From the NCBI GenBank assembly GCA_030539175.1, contig JAUNSN010000003.1, positions 1 through 56,345 on the forward strand: DNA of 56,345 nucleotides, in the 5' to 3' direction. The notes beneath the pieces are model-generated. The model was given only the letters and a program-made list of their open reading frames with translations. It was not told the DNA's origin and made no database searches. Source of the DNA: a bacterium (GTDB taxonomy: Bacteria > Bacillota_I > Bacilli_A > RF39 > UBA660). A program made the position numbers and the translations under genes. Shown piece by piece: positions 16,733-27,451 of this stretch (the first letter of the stretch is position 1; each line of letters starts with the position of its first letter).

Positions 16733-17593
16733 TGCTAAGGTCTTATATAAATAATCAATTGATTTTCTTACCTTTTTACATAATTCATATTGACTACCAG
16801 TAAGAGAAATTTTATCAGGTATACAAAGTATAACAAAGAGTAATAGTTTTTCTTCTTCCATTAATGGATATATACTTTCATAATACTTAAATATTTCGTT
16901 AAAATCAAAATCTAAATAATGTTTTTTATAAAGAACATATATATCATATATTGGCATATCAATTTTACTTTTTTCCCAACTGATAAAATAACTTTTATCA
17001 TTTTTTATATAATGTTCTAATTCTAAATTATTATGAATATTTACTACTCTTTGTCTTCTTTTATCTTTAATTAACTTATACCATTTTTCTAACGTTTTCT
17101 TACTATAATCAATAGATTCATATATTATATTAATATTTCTAGCAATCAAATAACTAACTGGTGACATATATACTTCGCTTTCAATTATATTAATAATATC
17201 AGTATAATAATTATATAAGTATTCAATATTCTTTAATAAATCTTCATATATCTTCTTATAATCATCAATATCCACTTCTTTATAAAAGGTAGTCTTACTA
17301 TGTAACATTGCCATTAATTTTACTAAATCTAATATTTTTTGTTCGCTAGGTTCATCATAATCACTAATATACTCAAATACATCATATTCTGGATCATTAA
17401 TTATTTTATCAGGATAATAATTAAAAGCTCGAGATTTTAAATAATTATAAACTGCATCTATGTTATTATTCTTTTTCTTTTTTATAACATATTTTCCCTT
17501 GTTAGTATCAAGTATACGAACATCTTTTTTTTGTGTGTATCTATTTAATTCTAACTTATATTTGTTTAAAAAATCTTTAACACTATTCATCAT
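16703..17593 (-). CDS. CotS/YsxE-family spore-coat kinase-like protein (degenerate catalytic loop)
   Basis: VNIHNNLELEHYI sits where kinases carry HGDxxxxN, and ISWEKSKIDMPIYDI is an IDWD..P..D-like motif. Overlaps the spoVID-like gene by 11 nt, matching the Bacillus spoVID-ysxE order. Confidence 0.5.
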   Translation of the reverse strand: MMNSVKDFLNKYKLELNRYTQKKDVRILDTNKGKYVIKKKKNNNIDAVYNYLKSRAFNYYPDKIINDPEYDVFEYISDYDEPSEQKILDLVKLMAMLHSKTTFYKEVDIDDYKKIYEDLLKNIEYLYNYYTDIINIIESEVYMSPVSYLIARNINIIYESIDYSKKTLEKWYKLIKDKRRQRVVNIHNNLELEHYIKNDKSYFISWEKSKIDMPIYDIYVLYKKHYLDFDFNEIFKYYESIYPLMEEEKLLLFVILCIPDKISLTGSQYELCKKVRKSIDYLYKTLALISENSITS

Positions 17594-18329
17594 TACTATA
17601 AGGAATTATTAATTTATCACCTACCTTTATTTCCGTTAAATCATTATAACTAGCAAGTATTTCTTTAGTAACTTTATATTTTTGTAAAATATTATCTAAA
17701 TTGTCTTTTTCTTTTACAATATATACTTTATATGTAACAAAAGTCTCATTATTATCAATATTTTCAAAAACATCAATATCTACTACATCATCATTTGCAT
17801 TATTCACTTTTTCTTCTAACTCCAAATCTAAATTAACGACATCTTTTTTCTTAAAAACTACACTCATATCTTCTTCTAAATCAAGACATCTATTATCCTC
17901 TTTATCTTCTTTTATGTTATCTATTTCTTCTATCTTATTGGTTTCCTTTATTATTTTGTCTTTTTCTAAATTATCCCGAGAATCAGACATAATATCAGTA
18001 TTTTTAAGTTCAGCACCCTCAATATATACATCAATATTAACTTTTAATATATCGTTATTAATTATCTCATAATAAAAATCTTCTATATCAATAACCATAT
18101 TATTAATATCAAATCTTGAATCCATCGCTATATCAAATGGTAACGTAAAACTAAATGGTTCTTTGTTAATACTAGCCTCAGTCATTTTATAATCTCCGCT
18201 AATATGAAATTCACCACTTATAAGACTATCTTCTTCTAAAGAAAGAGTATGTTCTAGGGAAATGCTAGTAATTTCTGTAATTTGTGTTTTAAACTTTAAC
18301 TCTTTTTTAAAGGGAATAACTTTTTTCAT
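17583..18329 (-). CDS. SpoVID-like sporulation protein (N-terminal SPOCS-like region, acidic middle, C-terminal LysM)
   Basis: C-terminal YKVYIVKEKDNLDNILQKYKVTKEILASYNDLTEIKVGDKLIIP is a LysM motif. The N-terminus ITSISLEHTLSL..ISGEFHISGDYKM resembles the SpoVID N-domain pattern. Confidence 0.55.
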   Translation of the reverse strand: MKKVIPFKKELKFKTQITEITSISLEHTLSLEEDSLISGEFHISGDYKMTEASINKEPFSFTLPFDIAMDSRFDINNMVIDIEDFYYEIINNDILKVNIDVYIEGAELKNTDIMSDSRDNLEKDKIIKETNKIEEIDNIKEDKEDNRCLDLEEDMSVVFKKKDVVNLDLELEEKVNNANDDVVDIDVFENIDNNETFVTYKVYIVKEKDNLDNILQKYKVTKEILASYNDLTEIKVGDKLIIPYSNDE

Positions 18330-20997: not shown

Positions 20998-22344
20998 TTA
21001 AATATTTAATCGTCTCTTAGTATTTATACTATTTAATGATTTTTTATTAAACTTTCTTTTTCGAATATTTAATATTATCATAACAATTAATCCACTAACA
21101 AATATAGCATTTATTATTATTAATATTAATATTAATAGATTGGACTTATCTAATTGCTTAGTTAAAATATCAACAATATTCTCATTATATCTTTGCAAAG
21201 TATTATTTTCTATATCATAAGAATACCAACCCTTTTCGTTAGTTTCAACATTAACTCCATATACTAAAGCAAACTTATCTGTATCCTTAATCTTAAAAGC
21301 ACTAATAATAGTATCTAACACATTAATTGATGTCTTCTTATACATCTCATTTATATCTTCAACTAAAGCATCTTCAATAATATAAAGAGTAATATTACCT
21401 GTCTTTATCTCTTTATATTGCATAAATGAAGAACTTTCCTCATCATAAATAAACCATAATATCTTGCCACTTTCATCTTTTAATAAAACTAATTTAATTC
21501 CAATAATAGTGTTTTCATAAGCTAAAACATCTTCATCATTTATATTAACAGTAGTTTCCGTATAATAACTAGGAACTTCTACTTCAGTTTTTTTTCTAAT
21601 AACCGTATATTGTTTATTATCTACAGTTACAACTACAGGGTTTAACTCTTTAACAGTAGCCTTTATAGTATATACACGTGTGTTACCATTTTCTGCCGTA
21701 ACAGTTATATTAATATTATTAACACCATCAGTAACATCTAATTTACCCAACCCCTCTACATCAGCACGACTATCCTCTGCTTTACCACTAACTTCAATAG
21801 ATGTCGTACCAGCCTCTAATTCAACCTCATATTCCATTGTTTCTTTGGCAAATTCTGGAGAAATTTCAACACCAGCAATTGCCAACTGACTAAGATAATT
21901 ATTAGAAGAATAAGACGCTTGCACTTCTGCTTGCGTTAATATCTTAACAGAAGTCGATCCAGCTGACTTTAATATTTCTTGCTCAGATTCATAATCAATA
22001 ATAGAACCATTTTTTATACTTACAGTAGCCGATCCTGAGGCAGTAGCCACAAAAGTATAACTATATGAAACTGATTTTTTAGAACCATTACCATAATCAA
22101 CTATATGCGGTGTAGCATTTGATGAAGTTAGTCTTAACTTCGATGAATCATAATTCAAACTATATTCCCACGTCCCAAGAGGAGCATTCGAAGAAACTGT
22201 AACTGTCACATTAAAACTTTTACCAACTACTACTGATGATGAAGAAGTATTTACACTAATATACCCATTAGCTGCACTTACTTCTTTAATTCCACCAAAA
22301 CACATAAATAATGCAATTAAACATAAAACTATTTTCTTTTTCAT
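20998..22344 (-). CDS. C-terminally membrane-anchored surface protein with an N-terminal cohesin-like module and a cadherin-like beta-sandwich domain
   Basis: Signal peptide. GKSFNVTVTVSSNAPLGTWEYSLNYDSSKLRL fits a cohesin-type pattern. NYLSQLAIAGVEISPEF..YEVEL..NINITVTAENGNTRVYTIKATV is cadherin-like. A TM segment LLILILIIINAIFVSGLIVMIIL is followed by a basic tail. Confidence 0.6.
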   Translation of the reverse strand: MKKKIVLCLIALFMCFGGIKEVSAANGYISVNTSSSSVVVGKSFNVTVTVSSNAPLGTWEYSLNYDSSKLRLTSSNATPHIVDYGNGSKKSVSYSYTFVATASGSATVSIKNGSIIDYESEQEILKSAGSTSVKILTQAEVQASYSSNNYLSQLAIAGVEISPEFAKETMEYEVELEAGTTSIEVSGKAEDSRADVEGLGKLDVTDGVNNINITVTAENGNTRVYTIKATVKELNPVVVTVDNKQYTVIRKKTEVEVPSYYTETTVNINDEDVLAYENTIIGIKLVLLKDESGKILWFIYDEESSSFMQYKEIKTGNITLYIIEDALVEDINEMYKKTSINVLDTIISAFKIKDTDKFALVYGVNVETNEKGWYSYDIENNTLQRYNENIVDILTKQLDKSNLLILILIIINAIFVSGLIVMIILNIRKRKFNKKSLNSINTKRRLNI

Positions 22345-22354
22345 TTTATCACCA

Positions 22355-24655
22355 CTATTCTATTGTTATATTACCAAGAATATGTTTTTGTACTCTTAGT
22401 AAATCAACCAAAGTAACATTATTATCATTATTAACATCAGCAGCTTTCCAATAAGCCCCATCTAAATTAATAGATTTTAGTAATCGCTTTTGAATGCGTA
22501 ATAAATCAACCAAATTTATTGTCCCATCGCCATTATTATCACCCAATACAACAGCAGTATAATTTTTAGATTTATTATTACTATTAATTGTTACAACATC
22601 ACCAGTTGCGAAATTACCACTAGCTTTAGTCCCACCATTTTTATCCCTTATCGTAATATTGGATTTATTCTCAATACTAGTAATTTTTGATTTAAAATCA
22701 CCAATAGATGATTTAATAGTCAAACCAGTTATATAATAATCATCATGCTTATATGAACTTTTATTCATGATATCATCAGGGTTTAAAGAAGTAACAACTG
22801 GTATATTAGTATCAGTATTTTTATCACTATCATCAATATCAGGAGTTGAACCAGTATCAGTATTTGGAGTTGAGGATGTATTTTTAACAAAAACAATTGA
22901 ATAAGTTCGACTAGTATTATTTTCCGCAGTCACAACAATATTAGCAGTAGTTCTCGTTGAATTTAACGATATTGTACCTGTACCACTTACATTAGAAGAA
23001 GCACTAATCTTCGTCGCTCCCACAGTTACACTAGATGTTGAAGCATCAACACCATATTCATAAGTAGTAACATCTTGAGTAAAATTTTCTAACTTAATCC
23101 CATTAACAGAAATGCTTGATAAATAATTATTACTATTAGCACTTTTCGTTAAAATAGTTTTTTCTGGCATATTACTATAATAAGGAATATAAAAGACTAA
23201 GTTTTTATCTAATATTGATAAATCAACATATGAATTATAAGTCTTTATTGCTTCACTACGCGGTGCCATAATATTAGTCATATACTGATAAGTATATTTA
23301 GTATGAGTAGCAGTAGGTGCAACATTAAACCTTTGAAAATAAGTTGTATACTGCCCAGCATTAATATATTTAGAAGCTAAATAATTCATTCCGCCTTCAA
23401 TTGAACTTTCTCTTGTTTTCCAAGGACGTCCATATGACGTTTCCGTACCATTTTCACCACCATTTGCCCATATTAACCCAGCTATTGCTGGCCGTTTATA
23501 AGCAAATGCGCCAATATTATAAAAATTATAAATTCCAGTATAAGTTTGTCCATTACCTTTTTTATAAACGCTATCATATTCATAAACAAAACTCTCGCCA
23601 GTTGAAGCAACAGAACTATAACCTATTTCTTGTCTAACTCGAGAAGCCGAATGAATAGGACTTATATTGTATTTACTAGCTCCACTCATAAACGAAGATG
23701 CCAAAGATGAATAACTAGTATCAGCAATTATCTGATTTACCGCTTCAACTGTTTGATAACTTGACTGGTAAGACCAATCCTCAAACATCATAATACTCTT
23801 TTCACTTAAATTATTTCGAGGATCCATATAATAAGCAACCGTATTACTATTAGCCGCATACCACCCTGGTTCAATTTGATTATAAGTATCATTTGATGAA
23901 TTATAAGAACCATCCGCTAAAGAATAGTACCCCTTATCATAAGAAGAATATATCAAACTAGTTCCTACATAACTCTCAGCTGTTACTGATGCTTCCCAAT
24001 CTAAAGAAGTATTAATTGCTTTAAATATCCAATTAGGATACTTTGCATGAAGAACAATTAAGCTACCCCAATAAGTTGTTGGAAAACCTTGATTTTGTAA
24101 ATAAGATTTGAAAGATGTAGCTTCCGAATTCGATAATAAAGATGATGGATCAGTCGTAACAAAATCACCAGTTATATATGCAACATCATCATGAATCAAT
24201 ATCTTATACCAATTATTACTATAAGAAATTATATTTACTCTATCACCAACATTTAAAGTTTCCATAACACTAGAAGACGTAGAAGGCGAAGTACGAACAT
24301 TTACCTTTGTTCCAGTAACATATCCAACTTGCAAATTATCATTTACTGAAACCCCAGTATCAGTAGATAAAGAAACAAATTCTCCACATATATATGCAGT
24401 TTGATTATTATAATTAATTTGAAACCATTTAGAACATGAGTTATTAGCTCCAACACTTGTATTTGTAACCGTTAATTTTGTTCCACTATTAACACTAGTA
24501 ATAACATTAGATAAACTATTAGTATCAGTTGAAGTTCTAATTCTTACTCCATTACCCGTTACAGTAGCTGATATAGAAGCCAATACAGGACTAGAAAAAG
24601 CAAATGATGATACTACTAAAGATATAATCATAATATAATTAAGTATTTTTCTCAT
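22355..24655 (-). CDS. secreted peptidoglycan hydrolase: 2x SH3b, glucosaminidase, cadherin-like beta-sandwich, type I dockerin
   Basis: Signal peptide. SH3b patterns (GVRIRTSTDT..WFQINY; VNVRTSPSTSS..WYKILI). Glucosaminidase-like YNFYNIGAF and GQYTTYFQRFNV. C-terminal duplicated Ca-loop segments DNNGDGTINLVDLLRIQKRLL and DVNNDNNVTLVDLLRVQKHIL. Confidence 0.75.
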   Translation of the reverse strand: MRKILNYIMIISLVVSSFAFSSPVLASISATVTGNGVRIRTSTDTNSLSNVITSVNSGTKLTVTNTSVGANNSCSKWFQINYNNQTAYICGEFVSLSTDTGVSVNDNLQVGYVTGTKVNVRTSPSTSSSVMETLNVGDRVNIISYSNNWYKILIHDDVAYITGDFVTTDPSSLLSNSEATSFKSYLQNQGFPTTYWGSLIVLHAKYPNWIFKAINTSLDWEASVTAESYVGTSLIYSSYDKGYYSLADGSYNSSNDTYNQIEPGWYAANSNTVAYYMDPRNNLSEKSIMMFEDWSYQSSYQTVEAVNQIIADTSYSSLASSFMSGASKYNISPIHSASRVRQEIGYSSVASTGESFVYEYDSVYKKGNGQTYTGIYNFYNIGAFAYKRPAIAGLIWANGGENGTETSYGRPWKTRESSIEGGMNYLASKYINAGQYTTYFQRFNVAPTATHTKYTYQYMTNIMAPRSEAIKTYNSYVDLSILDKNLVFYIPYYSNMPEKTILTKSANSNNYLSSISVNGIKLENFTQDVTTYEYGVDASTSSVTVGATKISASSNVSGTGTISLNSTRTTANIVVTAENNTSRTYSIVFVKNTSSTPNTDTGSTPDIDDSDKNTDTNIPVVTSLNPDDIMNKSSYKHDDYYITGLTIKSSIGDFKSKITSIENKSNITIRDKNGGTKASGNFATGDVVTINSNNKSKNYTAVVLGDNNGDGTINLVDLLRIQKRLLKSINLDGAYWKAADVNNDNNVTLVDLLRVQKHILGNITIE

Positions 24656-24811
24656 TATCTATCGCCTCCAGCATAATTATATTATAGCAAACTTTGTTGA
24701 ATTTTGCGAGCAAATTTTGGTGTTTTATTATTATATTTTTAAATTACTGTAAACAAAAGAAAAAGCCACTTTTATAAAAGTGACTCACTTTAAAATGAAA
24801 GTTTTTTACAA

Positions 24812-25576: not shown

Positions 25577-26437
25577 TTATTCCACTATATAATCAATTAA
25601 TTTATAGCCATTATCTGTTTTCTCAAATGTATATGTATAAGTAGATAACTTATCTTTAATTGTTTCGTAGTTTTCTTCAAAATAAATATCTACTAAATTA
25701 TCAAAGTCACTCGAAGCATCACCAATTTTAGAAATGAGTGTCTCACGATTAGCCGCCCCATATATTAAATCATCTCCGTTCCCAAAAGCACTACCAGAAC
25801 TCCACACGCATTTATAAGCTATTTTATACTTATTATCATTAATATCAAAATTTGTCATCTTACATGTATATGGAAATAACGTACCTTCTCCACCATGACC
25901 GCCATGATTATATGTATATACACCAGTTGACTCATCATATGTATACATTATATGTTTCGCAGTTGAACTTTCATCTGGCCAATAATAGGCAATCTCGCAA
26001 AGAATATCTTCATGATTTAGACCCATATTACTGAGTGCAGTTTTGTTGAAGGCCAACTCAATTTCTTGACTGGTTATGGTATTAGGAAAGCCATTCCAAT
26101 CATTTGTTTGATCTAAATAACCAATTGCTACCCACAACTTCATCTGATTACTAATATCACTATGTTTAGTAACTCTAACCAAACTAAGCAATTCACCAAA
26201 CGAATATTTATTAGTTAATCCAACTAAATTTTCTAATTCTTCTTGAGTTGTAAATATTTCCATATAATCAACTTTTTTAGTATTGTCAACTATATCACCA
26301 TTATCGGATTTAGAATTATCTTGTCCTTTTTCAAAAAGACTTTTATAACCTATATACCCAACCATAGCAATTACAATAATTAATAATATTATTATAATTA
26401 CATATAATCCCTTATTACTGCTTTTATTTTCATCCAT
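25577..26437 (-). CDS. membrane-anchored protein, tandem paralog A
   Basis: RBS AGGAGTG and an N-terminal TM segment LYVIIIILLIIVIAMVGYIGY. The last 27 aa are identical to the end of the 26448..27344 product. Confidence 0.6.
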   Translation of the reverse strand: MDENKSSNKGLYVIIIILLIIVIAMVGYIGYKSLFEKGQDNSKSDNGDIVDNTKKVDYMEIFTTQEELENLVGLTNKYSFGELLSLVRVTKHSDISNQMKLWVAIGYLDQTNDWNGFPNTITSQEIELAFNKTALSNMGLNHEDILCEIAYYWPDESSTAKHIMYTYDESTGVYTYNHGGHGGEGTLFPYTCKMTNFDINDNKYKIAYKCVWSSGSAFGNGDDLIYGAANRETLISKIGDASSDFDNLVDIYFEENYETIKDKLSTYTYTFEKTDNGYKLIDYIVE

Positions 26438-26447
26438 TTTTTCACTC

Positions 26448-27344
26448 CTATTCCACTATATAATCAATTAATTTATAGCCATTATCAGTTTTTTCAAATG
26501 TATATGTGTATGTAGATAACTTATCTTTTATAGCATCATAATTAATATTAAAATAGTTATTAATATCTTCTTCTTTAATATCAACAATTAACTCATTAAC
26601 ATTATTTAATGCATCTATATAACTACCATAAAAGTTATTATCTTTATTTTTAAAGACATTTTTAAAAGATATAATATATTTATCATCCATCATTACTTTA
26701 AAATCGACTACTTTTCTTAATACTTTTTCTATTACAATATTATTATGCTCTACTTCAACATAACTATAAATATCTTTATTCTTGTTATATTCCCACATAA
26801 TATGATTATTTTTTTCAATAATTGACGTATAACAATAAATACTAGTATTAATAATATTTAACCTTGAAAAAGAAGTAGTATTAAAATATTCTTTTGCAGT
26901 AGTACCACTAAATTCTAAAAGTTGATTATCTTTTTTTAAATTTGAAGATACTAACCATAACAGATCTTGATTAGTAATATCATCATATTTTAATTTATCA
27001 TCTAATATAAATAACTCACTTTCAACAATATTATCTAATTCTTTAACAACAATAGCTTGTTCCTCAGACAAAGAAGAAGAATTATTATTTAAAATATCTT
27101 TTATAACTTTATCATAAACAATATAACTAACTAGTAATATTACAATAACCAATATAATAATTATAATGACACTATAGTTTCTTTTTGGGGACTTTTTTTT
27201 AATTTCTTCAGTCTTAATCTCTGGTTTTTCATCTTCATGCTTAATAGTTGGATTATTTAACTCATATACCAACTGACTACTAGACTTCTTTGTTTTACCA
27301 AAAGTTTCAGGATCATACAATACATTATTATCTTTATTATCCAT
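26448..27344 (-). CDS. membrane-anchored protein, tandem paralog B
   Basis: ATG at 27344 follows GGTGA. TM segment YSVIIIIILVIVILLVSYIVY. The C-terminal IKDKLSTYTYTFEKTDNGYKLIDYIVE is shared with paralog A. Confidence 0.6.
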   Translation of the reverse strand: MDNKDNNVLYDPETFGKTKKSSSQLVYELNNPTIKHEDEKPEIKTEEIKKKSPKRNYSVIIIIILVIVILLVSYIVYDKVIKDILNNNSSSLSEEQAIVVKELDNIVESELFILDDKLKYDDITNQDLLWLVSSNLKKDNQLLEFSGTTAKEYFNTTSFSRLNIINTSIYCYTSIIEKNNHIMWEYNKNKDIYSYVEVEHNNIVIEKVLRKVVDFKVMMDDKYIISFKNVFKNKDNNFYGSYIDALNNVNELIVDIKEEDINNYFNINYDAIKDKLSTYTYTFEKTDNGYKLIDYIVE

Positions 27345-27451
27345 CTTTATCACCATATCCAATAAAATTATATAATAAAGAAAAGATAAGTGTCAATAAA
27401 AGCAATCGTTTTTTCTTATTTTACATTATTTGCACTCATGTAATAATCTTT

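Follow-up and report, generated by a model that had tools for sequence, protein, structure and literature searches.

How might a gut bacterium with a reduced genome keep a secreted wall-cutting enzyme at its own surface, and could two adjacent genes, one ending in a dockerin and the other beginning with a cohesin-like module, form such a device? The two genes lie on the minus strand, as do all features described below, of a 56,345-nt stretch of DNA that was analysed as a whole (the window) and belongs to a 1.29-Mb, 96%-complete draft metagenome-assembled genome. Gene A (22355..24655) encodes a secreted protein of 766 residues with the order SH3b-SH3b-GH73-cadherin-like-beta module-dockerin, and gene B (20998..22344) encodes a membrane-anchored protein of 448 residues with a single cohesin. 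Both reading frames are present where a preliminary description of this DNA had placed them, all peptide strings quoted there occur in A and B, and the distance of 10 nt that it gave is correct: the TAG stop codon of A is followed by the 10-nt spacer TGGTGATAAA (22345..22354), which contains an RBS-like GGTGA for gene B, and then by the ATG of B. Upstream of the pair, an intrinsic-terminator-like hairpin with a 10-bp stem and a T-run (24763..24786) ends the preceding SDR gene, so that A and B would begin their own transcription unit. Between this hairpin and gene A are an extended -10 promoter-like element, TGCTATAAT (24681..24689), a consensus match by direct reading with a putative function, and an RBS, GGAGG (24665-24669), which precedes the ATG of gene A at 24655. 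A SpoVID-like LysM protein is encoded 2.7 kb downstream of the pair, within the window.

Protein A begins with a cleavable signal peptide (residues 1-26, ending SSPVLA/S; 24578..24655), read from the sequence as a hydrophobic leader conserved in orthologues, and has no TM anchor. Two SH3b (SH3_3) domains follow (residues ~28-168; 24152..24574), matched by PF08239 in two stretches at 74.5 bits and, in a PDB sequence search, by the SH3b NMR structures 2krs, 2kq8 and 2kt8. The glucosaminidase domain claimed in the preliminary description (residues ~180-500; 23156..24118) escapes the Pfam glucosaminidase model, PF01832, which gives no match in A, yet it is recovered by other searches. As a single sequence, A aligns over residues 261-464 with the Atl glucosaminidase of S. 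aureus (6fxo, E=5.7e-6), and a family profile built from 50 A orthologues matches the GH73 structures SagB (6u0o/6fxp, E=5.7e-31), Atl (6fxo, E=2.6e-28), AtlE (4pi7, E=9.7e-25) and AcpA (5wqw, E=1.8e-21). The catalytic residue, Glu343 (codon 23627-23629), which falls opposite the Glu of LETGNG in the alignment to Atl, is invariant across 77 A orthologues, as is Y458 of YQYMTN, the Tyr of a YATD-like motif. On these profile matches the catalytic domain of A is a GH73 enzyme despite the Pfam miss, with cleavage of the GlcNAc-beta-1,4-MurNAc bond in peptidoglycan as its predicted activity. Next comes a cadherin-like beta-sandwich (residues 512-589; 22889..23122), which scores 20.5 bits on PF12733, under the cut-off of 24.2, although 36 of 50 A orthologues match this family. 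A Ser/Thr/Pro/Asp-rich linker then leads into a small beta module (residues ~621-700; 22556..22795) that has no family match in the Pfam scan and lies on the N-terminal side of the dockerin; T684 is invariant in orthologues.

The C-terminal dockerin of A (residues 704-760; 22376..22546) is type-I-like and duplicated, as had been proposed. It scores 47.5 bits on Dockerin_1 (PF00404; cut-off 22.9), 52.1 bits in the genome-wide search, and matches the type I dockerin 2ccl_B (E=3.5e-6). Each of its two ~22-residue repeats consists of an EF-hand-like Ca2+ loop and a helix, the two helices being near-identical; the first loop, DNNGDGTINLVD, carries D1, N3, D5, N9 and D12, and the second, DVNNDNNVTLVD, carries D1, N3, D5, T9 and D12. 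Among orthologues, D706, D717 and D751 are invariant, and conservation reaches 90% or more at D710, D740 and D744. The identical residue pair occupies positions 10 and 11 of both repeats in ~60 of 77 orthologues, and because the dockerin is internally symmetric, it probably can bind in two orientations. The dockerin is kept in all 50 A orthologues scanned, while the SH3b and cadherin-like modules vary.

Protein B carries a signal peptide (residues 1-24, ending EVSA/A, read from the sequence) followed directly by the putative cohesin (residues 26-141; 21922..22269). In the genome-wide profile search this module scores 23.4 bits on PF00963, 0.7 bits under the cut-off of 24.1, and hmmscan of B lists BatD (21.6 bits) rather than Cohesin for the same residues. 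However, an orthologue that is 41% identical, P0060, reaches 32.1 bits on PF00963, about one third of the best 120 B homologues have a precomputed match to this family, and the best three PDB sequence matches of the B-family profile are cohesins. The AF2 model of B has a pLDDT of 92.2 overall and of ~96 over residues 26-141, which form the nine-stranded flattened beta-sandwich (jelly-roll) of cohesins. Its best Foldseek matches are the C. perfringens GH84C cohesins 2w1n (E=6.8e-8) and 2jh2, which superpose on the module with TM 0.64-0.65 and an rmsd of 3.5; further cohesin matches are 6kgc_A, 2xdh, 4dh2 and 5nrk (OlpC, ScaB and A. fulgidus cohesins). Non-cohesin sandwiches (TRAP-beta, CLIPPER and C3 MG domains) appear at similar scores, and by these model comparisons the beta-sandwich fold by itself is not exclusive to cohesins. 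Taking family profiles and predicted structure together, we assign the N-terminal module of B to the cohesin family. It is followed by a cadherin-like beta-sandwich (residues 152-230; 21655..21891; PF12733, 27.2 bits, above the cut-off of 24.2) and an all-beta stalk (residues ~236-386; 21187..21639) that is modelled by AF2 with 14 strands at pLDDT >=90 and has no match in Pfam or among PDB sequences. The protein ends in a hydrophobic TM helix (residues 403-425; 21070..21138) and a basic cytoplasmic tail, RKRKFNKK; AF2 places one long helix at residues 388-447.

The module assignments of the preliminary description thus stand, including the secretion of A, the cadherin-like modules and the signal peptide and membrane anchor of B. 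The Pfam searches it proposed give matches to PF00404 and PF08239, and to PF12733 above cut-off in B; PF00963 is positive only in orthologues, the window protein falling just short, and PF01832 is negative.

As a surrogate for the AlphaFold-Multimer check that it had also proposed, we modelled a single chain, in the manner of a natural read-through fusion, comprising A698-766, a 28-residue linker and B25-145. The model reached a pTM of 0.78, a value read on its own, with pLDDT <50 in the linker and >90 in both modules, which suggests that the dockerin packs on the cohesin. Across orthologous pairs, divergence of the dockerin correlates with that of the cohesin (Spearman 0.43, partial r 0.39) and more weakly (0.13-0.22) with that of each remaining domain of the pair; dockerin position 10 and cohesin Y96 covary, but not significantly once phylogeny is taken into account (p=0.5 over 5 independent contrasts). 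Most likely, as judged from sequence and models, the cohesin of B binds the dockerin of A and would hold the hydrolase on the producer's own surface.

Comparison of genomes shows the two genes to be strictly coupled, both in position and in phyletic distribution. In all 77 assessable related loci, from different species, a GH73-dockerin gene lies directly upstream of a B homologue with a spacing of -8 to +25 nt, and the genes flanking the pair vary from locus to locus; this adjacency is far beyond chance. A survey of 201 genomes from this order found A in 139, each of which also encodes a full-length B; A by itself was not seen in any. The pair is missing from 55 of the 201 and is therefore not essential. 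The arrangement occurs in ~70% of the genomes sampled and is near-universal among gut Bacilli of this order. It had been described as unusual; it is instead common here, and a counterpart is in print for Ruminococcus bicirculans, as quoted below.

A genome-wide search returned one PF00963 candidate, namely B, and two dockerins, of which that of A is the stronger. The second, in a membrane protein on contig C38, could compete for the cohesin of B. A cellulosome was considered and rejected, given the one cohesin candidate, the two dockerins, the peptidoglycan hydrolase as cargo and no multi-cohesin scaffoldin. A is the sole GH73 found in the genome. At least six PBP transpeptidase matches and MurB are present, indicating that the cell has a wall, and four sortases are encoded, so the tether is not explained by the absence of another anchoring route.

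Several known systems resemble the pair in part. For R. bicirculans, Ze et al. 2015 (PMC4611034) quote Wegmann et al. [quoted passage not shown] As far as this quotation goes, that organism is, like the present host, a non-cellulolytic gut Firmicute with a minimal cohesin/dockerin set tied to GH73, whereas it belongs to the Clostridia and has a normal-sized genome, and the present pair occurs in a 1.3-Mb Bacilli lineage, in a genome that has a second dockerin. The cohesin-dockerin-GH73 pairing was thus already in print, by that quotation, and the present pair adds a case. The best structural matches of the B cohesin come from C. perfringens, where the GH84C/NagJ cohesin and the NagH FIVAR-dockerin (2w1n, 2jh2, 2ozn) likewise join glycoside hydrolases outside plant-cell-wall degradation, and the NagH dockerin construct (2jnk/2ozn) is among the matches of the A profile; there, however, the two partners are both secreted enzymes, which target host glycans and form soluble complexes, in contrast to the membrane anchor and peptidoglycan cargo of A and B. 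OlpA and OlpC of Clostridium thermocellum (3ul4, 4dh2), both found among the Foldseek matches of B, show that one type-I cohesin on a surface protein can take a single dockerin enzyme without a scaffoldin, although SLH modules fix them to the wall and their clients are cellulosomal enzymes, whereas B has a TM helix and shares an operon with a single cargo. The amylosome of Ruminococcus bromii (PMC4611034) is also a cohesin-dockerin assembly of a non-cellulolytic gut Firmicute, but with 26 dockerins and four cohesins devoted to GH13 starch degradation it is a nutritional multi-enzyme complex and differs from a one-enzyme tether. The closest solved relative of the A catalytic domain, S. aureus SagB, is held on the outer side of the membrane by its partner SpdC (bioRxiv 10.1101/2020.05.21.109470). 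A membrane-protein partner is common to both systems; yet SagB carries an N-terminal TM helix of its own, and its active site is rigidly oriented by SpdC, an 8-TM CAAX-protease-like scaffold, while A lacks a TM anchor and B is a single-pass beta-domain protein. A release complex of the SagB-SpdC type was examined and set aside, B being single-pass and only the catalytic domain of A being related. A precise ruler function for A and B is doubtful because the joint is modular and sits on a long flexible stalk.

The likely explanation, in our view, is that A and B make up a two-gene operon whose products place a peptidoglycan hydrolase on a tether at the cell surface. Both proteins would be exported via Sec signal peptides, and B would be held in the cytoplasmic membrane by the helix at its C-terminus, with the basic tail in the cytoplasm, the beta-domain stalk projecting outward and the cohesin as the outermost module. 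A, acting as an endo-beta-N-acetylglucosaminidase with two wall-binding SH3b domains, would plug its Ca2+-type dockerin into this cohesin. The enzyme would then stay on a long flexible leash at the producer's envelope instead of being lost by diffusion, and by cutting glycan strands there it could serve wall growth, the trimming of strands or the separation of daughter cells. The analysis shows the domain identities, the operon, the constant linkage and joint occurrence of the genes and a predicted packing of the two modules; the actual binding of A to B, its Ca2+ dependence, the enzymatic specificity and the physiological role are what we infer for this pair.

The same parts could also be linked in function without binding each other, with the B module a generic Ig-like or BatD-like spacer or wall binder and the dockerin of A either a Ca2+-binding stabiliser or directed to a partner elsewhere, such as the dockerin-bearing membrane protein on contig C38. 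The BatD listing, the sub-threshold PF00963 score, the non-cohesin sandwiches and the covariation that fades under phylogenetic control all lean this way; nonetheless we regard it as quite improbable, since B orthologues exceed the cohesin cut-off, the best sequence and structure matches in the PDB are cohesins, the fusion model scores well, the dockerin outlasts the SH3b and cadherin-like modules of A, A never occurs without B, and the only cohesin candidate of the genome adjoins the stronger of its two dockerins. A role in sporulation (mother-cell lysis, engulfment or cortex remodelling), the first of which the preliminary description had raised, fares worse and is highly improbable. The genome does encode SpoIVA (372.9 bits), the SpoVID-like protein lies nearby, and some GH73 enzymes of Bacillus act late in sporulation; yet the presence of the pair is independent of SpoIVA, at least 14 of the 20 SpoIVA-negative genomes listed keeping it and many SpoIVA-positive genomes (for example G004, G013, G016, G018 and G025-G027) lacking it, and TGCTATAAT reads, by consensus, as a vegetative-type extended -10 element.

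If A does dock on B, its target could still be foreign peptidoglycan, the complex serving as a miniature 'peptidoglycanosome' that lyses neighbouring bacteria or draws on wall debris in the gut as a source of amino sugars and muropeptides. Binding modules, enzyme and surface anchor follow the logic of the cellulosome and amylosome, cohesin-dockerin anchoring elsewhere serves the degradation of extracellular polymers, and the Ser/Thr/Pro linker, together with the several beta domains, would give a long flexible leash. Bensoussan et al. proposed a role in microbial competition for dockerin-linked lysozymes of the rumen (PMC6487960), and RF39-like lineages may depend on scavenged muropeptides (PMC10868615). 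Full-length glmS was not found in the 96%-complete genome, where the best match reaches 197 bits (cut-off 418), but is present in 14 of 14 control genomes; this absence is, however, taken from a draft assembly, and no MurNAc-6-P etherase (MurQ) was found in the genome, which leaves the salvage route without evident completion. Moreover, a sole GH73 in a reduced, wall-building genome fits housekeeping, and its nearest solved relatives, the autolysins SagB, Atl and AtlE, act on the producer's own wall. Foreign peptidoglycan is thus an improbable target, and we continue to favour a tether serving the producer's own wall.

That Gram-positive cells neither lose their autolysins by diffusion nor are killed by them is usually credited to wall-binding repeats, teichoic-acid targeting or TM anchors; the A-B plug, if true, would add a further, modular and reversible way to retain them. 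The cohesin and dockerin modules are compact (~115 and ~60 residues) and probably orthogonal, and may be of use for protein display. A more speculative proposal, which we think rather unlikely, is that the cohesin-dockerin joint sets the height of the GH73 domain above the membrane and so makes the pair a release and length-setting factor for nascent strands, a modular counterpart of SagB-SpdC, or else that the pair is an amino-sugar-harvesting surface 'peptidoglycanosome' in a lineage apparently without glmS; were either true, swapping the cohesin-dockerin specificity would rewire wall metabolism. In this gut lineage, which is large, uncultured and genome-reduced and has lost most other wall hydrolases, the pair is near-core, and this makes it a good candidate to supply the principal glycan-cutting activity of the cells.

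Gene A (22355..24655, minus strand; 766 aa) and gene B (20998..22344, minus strand; 448 aa) lie head to tail, with the TAG stop of A separated from the ATG of B by a 10-nt minus-strand spacer, TGGTGATAAA. Upstream, a terminator-like hairpin (24786..24763, minus strand) ends the SDR gene preceding A and is followed on the same strand by the promoter-region element TGCTATAAT and a GGAGG ribosome-binding site; because of these elements, A and B look like a separate two-gene transcription unit. Within the window, the pair is flanked by housekeeping genes, with ffh upstream and rpsO and pnp downstream. Directly upstream of the SDR gene, two tandem genes (25577-26437 and 26448-27362, minus strand) encode single-pass membrane proteins that have no Pfam match and finish in the same peptide, ...KDKLSTYTYTFEKTDNGYKLIDYIVE.

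Pfam searches of protein A recovered two SH3_3 domains (74.5 bits) and, at residues 704-760, a Dockerin_1 domain over its full length (47.5 bits against a cut-off of 22.9), bearing out the two SH3b domains and the C-terminal dockerin of the preliminary description. The dockerin contains two canonical Ca2+ loops, DNNGDGTINLVD and DVNNDNNVTLVD, and among PDB entries it is most closely related to a type I dockerin, that of C. thermocellum Xyn10B (2ccl_B). The Pfam glucosaminidase family PF01832 matched neither A nor any other protein in the whole genome, and the GH73 assignment of A is therefore based on PDB profile matches. In a PDB sequence search, residues 261-464 matched 6fxo, the glucosaminidase of S. 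aureus Atl (E=5.7e-6), and a profile built from A and 49 orthologues matched five solved GH73 enzymes, with E-values of 5.7e-31 for SagB (6u0o/6fxp), 2.6e-28 for Atl, 9.7e-25 for AtlE and 1.8e-21 for AcpA. Glu343 of A aligns with the catalytic Glu in the LETGNG motif of Atl and is invariant across 77 orthologues, as is Tyr458 in a YATD-like motif. The profile matches and the invariant Glu343 thus confirm the glucosaminidase domain originally proposed for A, PF01832 itself being silent.

Protein B begins with a signal peptide (...EVSA-A), followed by an N-terminal beta module (residues 26-141), a cadherin-like module, a beta-structured stretch of approximately 150 residues, and then a hydrophobic helix (403-425) with a basic tail behind it. 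The signal peptide and C-terminal membrane anchor originally described are both present, and B has the topology of a type I membrane protein whose N-terminal module is farthest from the membrane. Cadherin-like modules had been proposed for both proteins; that of B exceeds the Pfam cut-off (27.2 bits), whereas that of A is sub-threshold (20.5 bits). For the N-terminal module of B, hmmscan reported BatD (21.6 bits) and did not list Cohesin; in a whole-genome search with the cohesin family PF00963, this module is the sole match, at 23.4 bits, 0.7 bits below the cut-off. B has more than 1000 homologues, and a precomputed PF00963 match is on record for about one third of the top 120; an orthologue with 41% identity, P0060, matches PF00963 at 32.1 bits over residues 31-152. 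As a single sequence, B retrieved nothing useful from the PDB, and a 118-sequence B profile placed three cohesins on top (2y3n_A, 3l8q_A and 1tyj_A), albeit weakly (E=0.008-0.04). The AlphaFold2 model of B, computed with the 118-sequence alignment, has a pLDDT of 92.2, and its first-ranked Foldseek match in the PDB is 2w1n, a cohesin construct of C. perfringens GH84C (E=6.8e-8). This is followed by the cohesin-like module 2jh2 (TM 0.65, rmsd 3.5 over 134 columns) and, further down, by the OlpC and ScaB cohesins, C. acetobutylicum CohA2 and the non-cellulosomal cohesin of A. fulgidus. Non-cohesin sandwiches (TRAP-beta, CLIPPER and C3 MG domains) score similarly in Foldseek. The predicted fold by itself is not decisive; combined with the sequence evidence it is, and on these two grounds we consider the earlier cohesin assignment settled, given the P0060 match and the cohesins heading both the sequence and the structure searches.

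Three independent lines of evidence, namely position, phyletic pattern and genome inventory, show that A and B are a pair. We collected 80 loci with a B homologue from different species genomes, three of which are cut by contig ends. In all 77 assessable loci, the B homologue is immediately preceded by a same-strand ORF at a spacing of -8 to +25 nt, and every one of these ORFs contains segments corresponding to the GH73 and to the dockerin of A; the genes flanking the pair vary among loci. Of 50 A orthologues, all have the dockerin, but SH3b and cadherin-like modules are each found in 36. A further survey covered a sample of 201 genomes from the order to which this genome belongs, 0.6-1.6 Mb in size and with a completeness of 90% or more. 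A was found in 139 of them (E<=1e-40), all with full-length B, and both genes are absent from 55. The remaining seven have full-length B without A at this threshold (G047, G111, G144, G171 and G173 of genus g38, plus G127 and G187); their cargo is either much more divergent, replaced or located on unassembled DNA. B-family matches occur in 175 of the 201 genomes, approximately 146 of them full-length. In about 15 genomes (e.g., G021, G100, G115, G117 and G179), the six-frame B-profile matches include a single in-frame stop codon, mostly TAA and less often TAG or TGA, which may reflect matches overrunning the gene end or broken genes. The 1.29-Mb genome itself (GC ~26%) encodes one cohesin candidate and two dockerins, and the gene for the stronger dockerin lies 10 nt from the cohesin gene. 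Related loci come from human, mouse, rabbit, goat and sheep gut, in MAGs labelled uncultured Bacilli, Mollicutes, Tenericutes or Mycoplasmatota, as well as in Clostridium sp. CAG:594 and CAG:762. These origins, taken with the genome size, the GC content and the wall and spore genes, are consistent with one of the genome-reduced Bacilli orders treated in PMC10868615, possibly RF39.

To model the dockerin and cohesin together, a single-chain construct was derived from the natural junction (window:21910-22564, minus strand), with TAG and TGA read as Gly and TAAA read as one step. The resulting chain comprises A698-766, GWGG and B1-145, with the B signal peptide acting as a 28-residue linker, and its alignment combined unpaired dockerin and cohesin rows with 17 rows in which other loci pair the two modules naturally in frame. 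The AlphaFold2 model has a mean pLDDT of 86.7 (dockerin ~91, cohesin ~96, linker below 50) and a pTM of 0.78; multi-domain B alone reaches a pTM of only 0.59 despite its higher pLDDT. Because the pTM of 0.78 is attained despite 12% of the chain being disordered, with modules of 69 and 121 residues, the model indirectly suggests that dockerin and cohesin are held in a fixed mutual arrangement. Pairwise divergence of the dockerin correlates with that of the cohesin (Spearman 0.43), and the partial correlation is 0.39 once GH73, cadherin-like and stalk distances are removed; the values are 0.13-0.22 for the dockerin versus other domains of the pair and 0.17 for the cohesin versus its adjoining cadherin-like module. 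Positions 10 and 11, which in the two repeats of A are L715/V716 and L749/V750, are the usual recognition positions of dockerins, and internal symmetry at a dockerin is associated with a dual binding mode. In about 60 of the 77 A orthologues, the residues at these two positions are identical between the dockerin repeats (IL/IL in 25, IK/IK in 12, VL/VL in 5, and others). Mutual information is highest between cohesin Tyr96 and dockerin position 10, in both repeats (L715 and L749). Counted on a tree built from the remaining domains, this covariation amounts to only five independent contrasts and is not significant (p=0.5); it is suggestive only, and we did not count it as evidence.

The second dockerin protein of this genome (864 aa) is encoded on another contig (C38:8713-11883, locus L002, ORF 406-3000 of the locus, minus strand) and was detected by Pfam and a lineage dockerin HMM. 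A signal peptide and a 440-aa N-terminal region matching no named family precede its divergent dockerin (residues 444-500; 19.6-25.4 bits in Pfam, 32 bits with the lineage HMM), which is followed by a beta module, two cadherin-like modules and a C-terminal TM helix. The beta module is faintly cohesin-like (7 bits with a lineage-specific cohesin HMM), and this candidate second cohesin has no PDB sequence match; hhalign aligns the protein with B at a probability of 96, mainly via the cadherin-like part. The protein may be another client of the B cohesin, or it may carry a partner module of its own. A 555-aa open frame elsewhere in the genome (C17:8661-9761) contains four tandem PF12733-type repeats related to the modules of A and B, and surface proteins of this genome make repeated use of the cadherin-like module.

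The genome encodes at least six PBP-type transpeptidase matches and MurB, A is its sole detected GH73, and the nearest solved relatives of the A catalytic domain are staphylococcal autolysins, SagB first. Since the cell is walled, A is its only GH73 and its nearest relatives are autolysins, we favour a housekeeping role for the pair on the producer's own wall. After secretion, A would dock on the cohesin that tops the B stalk and would stay on the producer's envelope, where, bound to peptidoglycan via SH3b, it would cleave glycan strands as cells grow or separate. SagB, which trims or releases newly made glycan strands, is kept at the membrane by SpdC (bioRxiv 10.1101/2020.05.21.109470); A resembles SagB in the catalytic domain only, and A-B is otherwise not homologous to SagB-SpdC. 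The leash between enzyme and membrane, consisting of a Ser/Thr/Pro-rich linker and beta modules on both partners, is long and flexible, which makes a rigid, SagB-SpdC-like "ruler" less likely than simple retention. A tether substituting for missing sortases is ruled out, as the genome encodes four sortases.

Action of A on foreign peptidoglycan, in competition or scavenging, is improbable by comparison with this housekeeping role. Muropeptide scavenging has been suggested for RF39-like orders (PMC10868615), and full-length glmS, present in 14 of 14 control genomes, was not found here, the best match (C45:6368-7078, a 355-aa frame) covering model positions 135-382 only (197 bits against a cut-off of 418); this gap possibly reflects amino-sugar auxotrophy or a hole in the draft MAG assembly. 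However, MurQ was not found in the genome either, while MurB is present. We give still less credence, and very little in all, to the pair being a sporulation device, even though the organism is likely a spore-former, with SpoIVA in the genome (C76:8228-8935, 372.9 bits) and, just downstream of pnp, a SpoVID-like LysM protein (17583-18329, minus strand; SpoVID N-terminal domain sub-threshold at 23.1 bits). The pair is kept in at least 14 of 20 listed SpoIVA-negative genomes, and many SpoIVA-positive genomes lack it, so that its phyletic pattern does not track SpoIVA and the mother-cell lysis once suggested for it is not upheld. SpoIVA itself occurs in 177 of the 201 genomes of the order, which, at 0.6-1.6 Mb, would be very small for endospore formers.

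Outside cellulosomes, cohesin-dockerin pairs are already established for glycoside hydrolases of C. perfringens, in A. fulgidus and in the R. bromii amylosome. For the non-cellulolytic Ruminococcus bicirculans, genome analysis has reported one cohesin and one dockerin linked to a GH73 enzyme (Wegmann et al. 2014, cited through Ze et al. 2015, PMC4611034). A cellulosome is ruled out for the A-B pair. Dockerins on putative lysozymes have been described in rumen metagenomes (Bensoussan et al. 2016, PMC6487960), and our literature search turned up no experiments on such a pair or on an autolysin bearing a dockerin. A-B is a further case of an already known kind of pair, known from sequence. The present analysis contributes a Bacilli lineage whose genomes carry the pair as a near-core feature, a phyletic coupling in which A never occurs without full-length B in the 201-genome sample, and a predicted docked model of the dockerin with the cohesin.
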